Source: Octopus vulgaris
Lineage: Eukaryota
Direction of reading: 5' to 3'
Assembly (NCBI GenBank): GCA_951406725.2
Contig: OX597837.1
Coordinates: forward strand, 38,564,001 to 38,628,000
DNA length: 64,000 nucleotides
Positions 13,939-14,147 of this stretch are shown here, piece by piece. The translations under genes and the position numbers were made by a program. Each line of letters opens with the position of its first letter. The stretch's first letter is position 1. The notes under the pieces were generated by a model. It had not been told where the DNA came from. It was given only the letters and a program-made list of their open reading frames with translations, and made no database searches.

Positions 13939-14147
13939 TACCGGAGTAAGCACATAAATACGAAACAAGGTGGAAGAAAAGAGTACTCGAATACCAGAGG
14001 TAGAGTAATATGCTTTATTAAAAAGCAGCAGAAATGTCACAAAAGCTGTTACTCAGAGTTTCGCGTTCCCGTTCGTCGGACGAAGGGGAATATGAAACTC
14101 CGAGTAACAACATTTCTGATATTTCTGCTGTTTTTAATAAAGTACAT
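13939..14147. mobile_element. Fold-back mini-element (family D) with two divergent hammerhead cores
   Basis: Inverted arms 14008-14077 and 14079-14147, axis at 14078 (TTCGTC-G-GACGAA); minus strand CCGACGA-ACGGGAACGC-GAAACTC-T-GAGTA; family copy at 54921-55051. Confidence 0.85.

Follow-up and report, generated by a model that had tools for sequence, protein, structure and literature searches.

The palindrome at 14013-14142 of the window (the whole 64,000-nt stretch of Octopus vulgaris DNA that was analysed) has an arm identity of 84% and, in self-alignment, its axis at 14077.5, i.e. about 14078. It is a head-to-head remnant of a Penelope-like element (family A), and its 16% arm divergence argues against an assembly fold-back. 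The minus-strand arm (14013..14081; self-alignment and breakpoint calls) bears a 73-nt 3' extension found on this arm only (13940..14012, minus strand; recognised from the sequence and its relatives), here termed the tail, while the plus-strand arm (14075..14142; sequence, self-alignment and breakpoint calls) is tail-less and has a TA-rich repeat at its end; both outer ends of the copy adjoin dinucleotide repeats. On a scale in which hammerhead residue 3 is set to 0 (so that, for example, -16 is counted from residue 3), the tail-bearing arm is cut off at -2 from core C3, with nearly the whole 5' strand of stem I missing, and the tail-less arm at about -2/+2, so that this strand is absent from both. 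A hammerhead of predicted type I minimal form, with an incomplete stem I, occupies 14050..14079 on the minus strand (core CCGACGA, a 3-bp stem II, GAAA, a palindromic stem III and the predicted cut site GUA; read from the sequence, helices assigned by hand), and a second hammerhead remnant lies on the plus strand at 14077..14106 (core CGGACGA, GAAAC at 14094-14098, GUA at 14104-14106; sequence and self-alignment). Rfam returned no hammerhead match for the window copy or for six loci.

The initial annotation had put the symmetry axis at core position 4, in the word TTCGTC-G-GACGAA, and both the sequence (14072-14084, middle G at 14078) and the self-alignment bear this out: 14078 is hammerhead position 4 for both arms. 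The minus-arm core (14079 to 14073) is the normal family A core, and the plus arm has G at position 4 because of the junction (14075..14081, placed by breakpoint calls), a 7-nt quasi-palindrome common to both arms that represents microhomology from family sequence -2..+4; the central G is the complement of C4. Since the stretch -2..+4 is nearly self-complementary, a junction there sets the axis on position 4, and no special event is needed. An axis within the core is thus a minor class, caused by this natural quasi-palindrome: the same geometry (a 57-nt anchor span) was recognised by eye in 12 of the first 50 listed pairs of the 26-38 nt gap class of family A (one of them asymmetric and one a duplicated locus), which scales to roughly 2-3% of 819 family A pairs, and a matching span occurs in 3 of 25 family G pairs, in two of which the axis clearly sits on position 4. 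The window copy by itself is ordinary, and its worth lies in the family-wide pattern.

Families were defined by their axes in the window (A, 14078; B, 9858; C, 45972; D, 56553; E, 35749), and two more were added (F, a random locus chosen for its near-core axis, and G, found through the stem III motif of the 45972 example). That axes elsewhere lie within about 20 nt upstream of the core, as initially annotated, stood for 9858, 56553 and (by eye) 45972, and failed for 35749. The family B head-to-head unit (9733..9943; tail at about 9733-9772, arms at 9773-9943) is a true outward-reading fold-back with its axis 5 nt upstream of the U3-A8 variant core TTGACAA (9863-9869), as is the family D unit (56464..56715; arms at 56464-56642, junction -14/-12, tail on the plus arm to about 56715), with its axis 15 nt upstream of the core. 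Two further D-like units lie at 53850-54090 and at about 49990-50100; in the one near 53981 the plus arm starts, by eye, about 12 nt upstream of a CCGAAGA core. Family C (45936..46011, by eye) is a decayed hammerhead pair with its axis about 6 nt upstream of the plus-strand core (45978-45984), and is probably a true outward pair; its stem III motif is also present in family G, and a DNA search with it returned only the self-match. The counter-example, family E (35595..35780, minus strand), is a dispersed repeat that carries a 5' hairpin of its own. Of 19 relatives, 14 are colinear with it through the axis, so the hairpin belongs to the element, and family E is not a fold-back. It is probably not a hammerhead either, judging from the relatives shown, which mostly carry GTAAA or GTGAA where GAAA is required; two of its loci gave no Rfam match. 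The motif downstream of its conserved 5' hairpin recalls what we take to be RTE/BovB-type LINE-derived SINE sequence, and an array of a roughly 10-nt unit (35800-36065) directly adjoins the copy.

The annotated examples were, moreover, selective, as five other window palindromes (8299-8694, 27458-27829, 52762-53118, 53271-53508 and 54534-54795) have no hammerhead-like core within 70 nt of their axes; possibly they belong to other Penelope-like or Naiad families. The arms of the palindrome at 8299-8694 are 98% identical, with a one-sided extension. An Rfam scan of the window gave just microsatellite-driven miRNA-type matches among the 150 of 595 listed. Naiads likewise possess inverted units without canonical hammerheads, according to the accessible text of PMC8557442, and these, together with the five core-less palindromes, indicate that the ribozyme is not required for inversion.

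Element identity and orientation of paired copies

Family A copies read, in order, stem I 5' strand, core CCGACGA, a short stem II, GAAA, a palindromic stem III, GUA and stem I 3' strand, with a short end at +66 and a tail to +138; core position 4 is C in 112 of 152 arms and T in 34. Long copies are predicted to form a 12-bp stem I, a 3-bp stem II, the palindromic stem III and GUA. Insertion is into TA-type microsatellites, the 2.8-Gb host genome being rich in microsatellites: a dinucleotide repeat begins within the 6 nt after 127 of 143 family A tail ends, and most of the remaining 16 run into other simple repeats. Two features of EN+ Penelope-like elements were found, namely an adjacent inverted, 5'-truncated copy placed head-to-head and an optional tail on one end only. 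Exactly one tail per head-to-head unit was present in 113 of 126 units in family A, 21 of 23 in B and 30 of 32 in D, with tail lengths of 40-73 nt in the families analysed here.

No ORF was encountered in five family A loci extended by 8 kb, and ORF-like sequence was recognised in families B and D. Families B and F carry a U3-A8 covariant hammerhead core (loci L387-L400), and the family B locus L352 contains a frameshifted ORF, RT-like and endonuclease-like (C..C / LYVIRCxxC..YIG), with a 3' region common to L168; two pieces of the family B ORF had no Pfam match. At L352:2630-7842 the element is near-complete (a 640-nt inverted arm with a tail, the frameshifted RT-endonuclease ORF, a long 3' region and a tail-less end), and in one near-complete family B element an arm of 540 nt is joined to an arm of 4.5 kb. 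The end of a GIY-YIG-type ORF lies about 980 nt upstream of the core in the family D locus L349; this ORF end resembles L354, which has a weak GIY-YIG match (E 0.006, below cut-off); a PDB sequence search gave no useful match. In the head-to-head pair at L354:635-2754 the arms extend into a GIY-YIG ORF that has a Cys-rich linker, and the junction lies about 1 kb from the ribozyme. The family B endonuclease resembles the Poseidon type and that of D and L354 the Neptune type. In one family G copy (L402:1-286), the 7 nt that precede stem I can base-pair with the 5' strand of stem II, and the alternative hairpin so formed could hide the core, as a possible off-switch.

Two other element types were considered and rejected. 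The monomers of retrozymes measure 150-500 nt. Non-LTR retrozymes consist of tandem monomers each with a hammerhead (accessible text of bioRxiv 10.64898/2026.07.22.740005), and family A copies are instead single or head-to-head, the long ones extending >600 nt upstream with no unit repeat. A MITE or DNA transposon with terminal inverted repeats would have fixed ends and a fixed internal length, whereas here the centre differs between copies and the tail is confined to one arm.

The initial annotation had the ribozymes always reading outward, and equal frequencies of the two orientations are clearly contradicted by genome-wide counts with exact anchors: head-to-head versus tail-to-tail pairs numbered 819 (gap <=250) versus 22 (gap <=500) in family A (with a 13-nt anchor that also caught a few related families), 70 versus 3 in B and 29 versus 0 in D. 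TA repeats lie between the copies in most of the family A tail-to-tail cases shown, as expected for separate insertions or secondary duplications. The prevalence of the head-to-head arrangement is already published (PMC3846280, in its accessible part). A family-blind scan (60 random 10-kb stretches plus the window) yielded 56 palindromes, 8 of them with a strict hammerhead match, and its motif matches (8 outward, 3 inward) are too few and noisy for a test of the rule. At five loci (L126, L132, L134, L138 and L247:8302-8716) whole head-to-head units are re-duplicated in inverted orientation around a TA repeat, creating nested palindromes through a secondary fold-back or an assembly effect; the arms of the L247 case are 99.5% identical.

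Clustering of 5' ends at the upstream edge of the ribozyme

Breakpoints were called by aligning arms to 3-5 single-copy references per family (matches <35 bits dropped), opposite arms were paired within -40..+60 nt and duplicates removed; the sets obtained with DNA queries represent best-scoring matches and not random draws. Family A pairs fell into gap classes of 26-38 nt (96 pairs), 50-75 nt (396 pairs, equivalent to a mean arm end of -8..-20) and 76-500 nt (163 pairs), i.e. 7, 15 and 0.4 per base, and a two-exponential (memoryless two-arm) null, which expects 195/235/225, is rejected (chi2 177). With tail queries, ascertained on 3' sequence only, 35 of 61 family A arms ended in the zone 0..-20 (12 times the downstream and 16 times the upstream rate), and in an independent family A set (anchor order on C1) 19 of 29 did so (7 and 9 times, respectively). 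The zone likewise captured 16 of 30 family D arms (3' ascertainment; 6.5 times the downstream and 11 times the upstream rate) and 7 of 30 in family B (4.6 times the upstream rate), the other 23 passing it; the rate-ratio p values for A, D and B range from 5e-18 to 9e-3. Nested exact motifs of subfamily A1 numbered 1028 at -13, 532 at -16, 410 at -17, 315 at -18 and 286 at -20, which corresponds to a retention of 0.77-0.80 per base to -18 (20-23% loss) and of 0.95 thereafter (5%, about the mutation rate), so that the upstream edge of 5' ends in family A stands at -18.

Pair axes tell the same for the smaller families: 20 of 29 in D, 12 of 14 in F and 22 of 25 in G fall in +8..-20, tighter than the null in F (P 0.002) and G (P 0.0002). 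In family B this interval holds 9 axes among the first 50 of 70 listed, 25 being beyond -50; apparent family B ends near -220 reflect an internal tandem repeat and are not true ends. The modal 5' end is about -3 in F and G, -11..-17 in A and -14..-16 in D, and stem I is of 12-14 bp in A and D and short in F and G, with duplex energies of -9.6 (A), -8.6 (D), -4.6 (F), -4.1 (G) and -2.8 (B) kcal/mol. The ends are spread over about 20 nt, and not focused on a single base; in family A the stretch -12..-17 is A/T-rich, so that fortuitous identity with the TA target makes the edge uncertain by a few bases. A pile-up at the ribozyme cleavage site, which was looked for among the arm ends, did not emerge, and a small family A excess at +29/+30 (7 arms) is partly due to alignment or to stem I microhomology.

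Non-inverted copies end in this zone as well (10 of 22 and 7 of 12 in two family A sets, 3 of 13 in family D), although some of them carry very short, unrecognised inverted arms, and we therefore regard the zone as a truncation hotspot and not as an inversion point. Taken together, these observations establish, with high confidence, a real hotspot of 5' ends in families A, D, F and G, and a uniform distribution of breakpoints along the elements is untenable there. The annotated recurrent point next to the ribozyme is thereby retained for these four families and loses its specificity for inversion, given that non-inverted family A copies share it; as a rule for the formation of inverted pseudo-LTRs it largely holds in the same families and is not universal, as family B exemplifies. 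The proposed stall or template switch at the structured core was not borne out as stated, since the ends peak on the stem I 5' strand or slightly upstream of it, where the reverse transcriptase has already passed the core.

Formation of the head-to-head unit

We suggest that one Penelope-like insertion arises from two separately primed cDNAs, which run off an RNA end located at the stem I base and are then united by end-joining, a scheme to which, as a whole, we give even chances; that two cDNAs would be involved, one per strand and start site, appears to us probable. Within a TA repeat the endonuclease would cut both strands, and priming from each 3' end would take place at one of two RT start sites (the short end and the tail end), as it does in vitro for Poseidon_Ac. 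Most cDNAs would stop in the zone where the template ends, the end being a transcription start or the result of trimming up to the folded ribozyme, and the minority of long copies would derive from templates that continue upstream. The two cDNAs would then be end-joined at short microhomology, the exact axis being set by local self-complementary words, of which the window copy may have used the one overlapping core positions 3-7.

The arms themselves bear on this proposal. Arm lengths in family A were compared in 76 single-tail units whose gap was <=12 nt, outside the gap-selected and tail-to-tail sets; the tail arm was the longer in 27 and the tail-less arm in 28, the two being within 2 nt in 21, and in family D the tail arm was longer in 8 and shorter in 9; family B leans towards longer tail arms (9 versus 4). 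Two cDNAs, each from its own strand and start site, would account for the one-tail rule and for the absence of any bias towards a longer arm. Both arms of a family A unit come from one subfamily: divergence is 0.089 between arms of the same unit and 0.155 between arms of different units (61 units), and at seven subfamily columns the two arms match in 47-56 of 61 units, where 19-40 are expected. Family A junctions (n=126) comprise 49 overlaps, 11 blunt joints, 45 inserts of 1-10 nt and 21 longer inserts, with no clear cap-derived G/C signature in 55 short inserts (A77 T77 C41 G36). As to the template, the upstream edge, the low rate on entering the helices and the long survivors past the edge are best accommodated by an RNA 5' end that would lie at the base of stem I, and both A subfamilies have at -16/-17 an A in a YYANWYY-like word, which we take to be start-like (pyrimidine-pyrimidine-A). 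Several observations speak against the run-off scheme, among them the spread of the ends over about 20 nt and the lack of a clear cap-derived signature. Family B mostly ignores the zone, and the arm ends within a family A unit are correlated (rho 0.35, p 0.002), which independent cDNAs do not predict, even if part of this correlation is built in because a microhomology that is itself a palindrome lengthens the two arms alike. Nor is transcription generally initiated at stem I, since in D. virilis Penelope the start lies 46 + 75 nt upstream of the intron end that maps to helix I (accessible parts of PMC2377424 and PMC4209133).

A serious rival to run-off, and the closest version of the first stall idea, is that the template continues and that the reverse transcriptase falls off, or the cDNA folds as the mirror of stem I, once the 5' strand of stem I has been copied, the cDNAs being joined thereafter; we consider it possible, though doubtful. 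The mode follows stem I length across four families (a lead and not a proof, as no statistic attaches to it), family B combines the weakest duplex with the weakest hotspot, and a few junctions use stem I complementarity (e.g. L023, -17/+30, and L315, +30/-12). On the other hand, a pause would be expected on helix entry (the 3' strand, +30..+42), where the rate is 0.004 per nt as against 0.056 in the zone; F and G have tight hotspots in spite of their weak stems I, and the drop in family A runs to -18, past the predicted helix (-12..-14).

Snap-back priming, also raised by the initial annotation, would have one cDNA (or antisense template) fold at a short palindrome and be copied into the second arm, and self-priming on the antisense template has been proposed for Adineta Penelopes (PMC3846280, accessible part). 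The correlated arm ends, the shared subfamily of both arms and the enrichment of symmetric junctions (21 versus 9.6 in shuffles in A, 9 versus 4.3 in D) are in line with it. As a tail-less cDNA copy cannot gain a tail, the tail arm should then be the longer one, which the counts for A and D contradict (those for B lean the predicted way), and this disfavours the simple form; moreover, 66 of 126 family A junctions have inserted bases instead of an overlap, and non-inverted copies ending in the same zone are left unexplained. We therefore regard it as unlikely.

It is improbable that the pattern stems from post-insertion erosion of palindrome centres with age, or from near-core anchors that select short units. 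The young family B (95-100% identity) has long arms, and among pooled family A units long arms look younger (0.045 versus 0.074, rho 0.23, p 0.04), yet the age difference loses significance once ascertainment is matched (p 0.14 for 11 versus 14 units, p 0.43 for 6 versus 43; low power). Solo copies, which are not palindromes, are of equal age whether short or long (91.3 versus 91.2%), and tail-ascertained arms had 70 nt in which to break before the zone and rarely broke there.

That splicing sets the end, the apparent breakpoints being exon boundaries, is highly improbable, for although family D has a T-run and CATAG at about -16, just before stem I and next to its peak at -14..-16, and the D. 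virilis Penelope intron ends at helix I (PMC4209133, accessible part), family A has no AG near -16, several D arms run 1-4 nt into the supposed intron (L176, L185 and L196) and no upstream-exon sequence was recognised at junctions. The pyrimidine run of family D is preceded by a branch-like word, with CATAG ending about 16 nt before the core (L199:1660-1690, minus strand; L186, L187 and L193). Contigs from four presumed RNA runs on a family D copy contained no splice joint, and such contigs cannot reveal RNA starts.

Returning to run-off at the RNA end, we tentatively propose that in many Penelope-like families the hammerhead may mark the very 5' end of the template, and that 'strong-stop'-like cDNAs may build the inverted pseudo-LTR. 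Reverse transcription would begin 80-150 nt downstream and proceed as far as the base of stem I. Each of the two cut strands would contribute one such cDNA, and the palindromic helix III, through dimer formation, may keep the two close; on this view the folded ribozyme would serve integration as a boundary or scaffold instead of, or in addition to, cutting. This bears on how Penelope-like elements finish insertion and on the role of their hammerheads. A genomic footprint that fixes the cDNA ends, and that moves with stem I length, supplies exact predictions for 5'-end mapping and for a purified-protein assay, and accounts for thousands of short hairpin repeats that might be mistaken for MITEs or microRNA precursors.

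Comparison with known systems

The element type, the head-to-head orientation and the one-sided tail are known already. The EN+ Penelope-like pLTRs of Adineta vaga share with the octopus families the predominance of head-to-head copies, junction palindromes, a tail at one end and insertion into TA repeats (accessible parts of PMC3846280 and PMC8557442); the tail measures 30-40 nt in the available descriptions of Adineta-type elements, as compared to 40-73 nt here. The accessible parts of both papers do not place the junctions relative to the hammerhead, whereas in four of five families here the 5' ends cluster at its 5' edge. PMC3846280 proposes self-priming on an antisense template; the tail test here argues against a simple fold-back. 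Metazoan Penelope-like elements with minimal type I hammerheads (PMC4209133, accessible part) are alike in the palindromic helix III, the U3-A8 variant (seen here in B and F), the opposite-strand pairs and the mostly truncated copies; the pairs, about 100-700 bp apart, are not analysed in that part of the paper, and family A differs in having mostly C at position 4.

The closest biochemical counterpart is Poseidon_Ac, for which in vitro work (PMC11167929, accessible part) describes cutting and extension of both strands of AT-rich DNA, two internal RT start sites that bound the tail, a predicted dimer, and a hammerhead near the start sites whose cleavage is dispensable for insertion. That study, in its accessible part, maps cDNA starts and not ends and offers no model of the inverted junction; its hammerhead overlaps the ORF start, while here the motif lies about 2.4 kb (B) and 1 kb (D) downstream of the ORF end. 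In LINE-1 twin priming the second primer starts internally, and the two pieces cover different parts of the RNA. The likeness lies in two primed cDNAs being joined in inverted orientation at one target site (accessible part of bioRxiv 10.1101/2024.12.14.628481), and the difference in that both arms here cover the same 3' end and differ by the tail alone. None of the accessible texts that were searched relates the positions of truncation or inversion to the 5' edge of the ribozyme, and to that extent the truncation hotspot at this edge is new.
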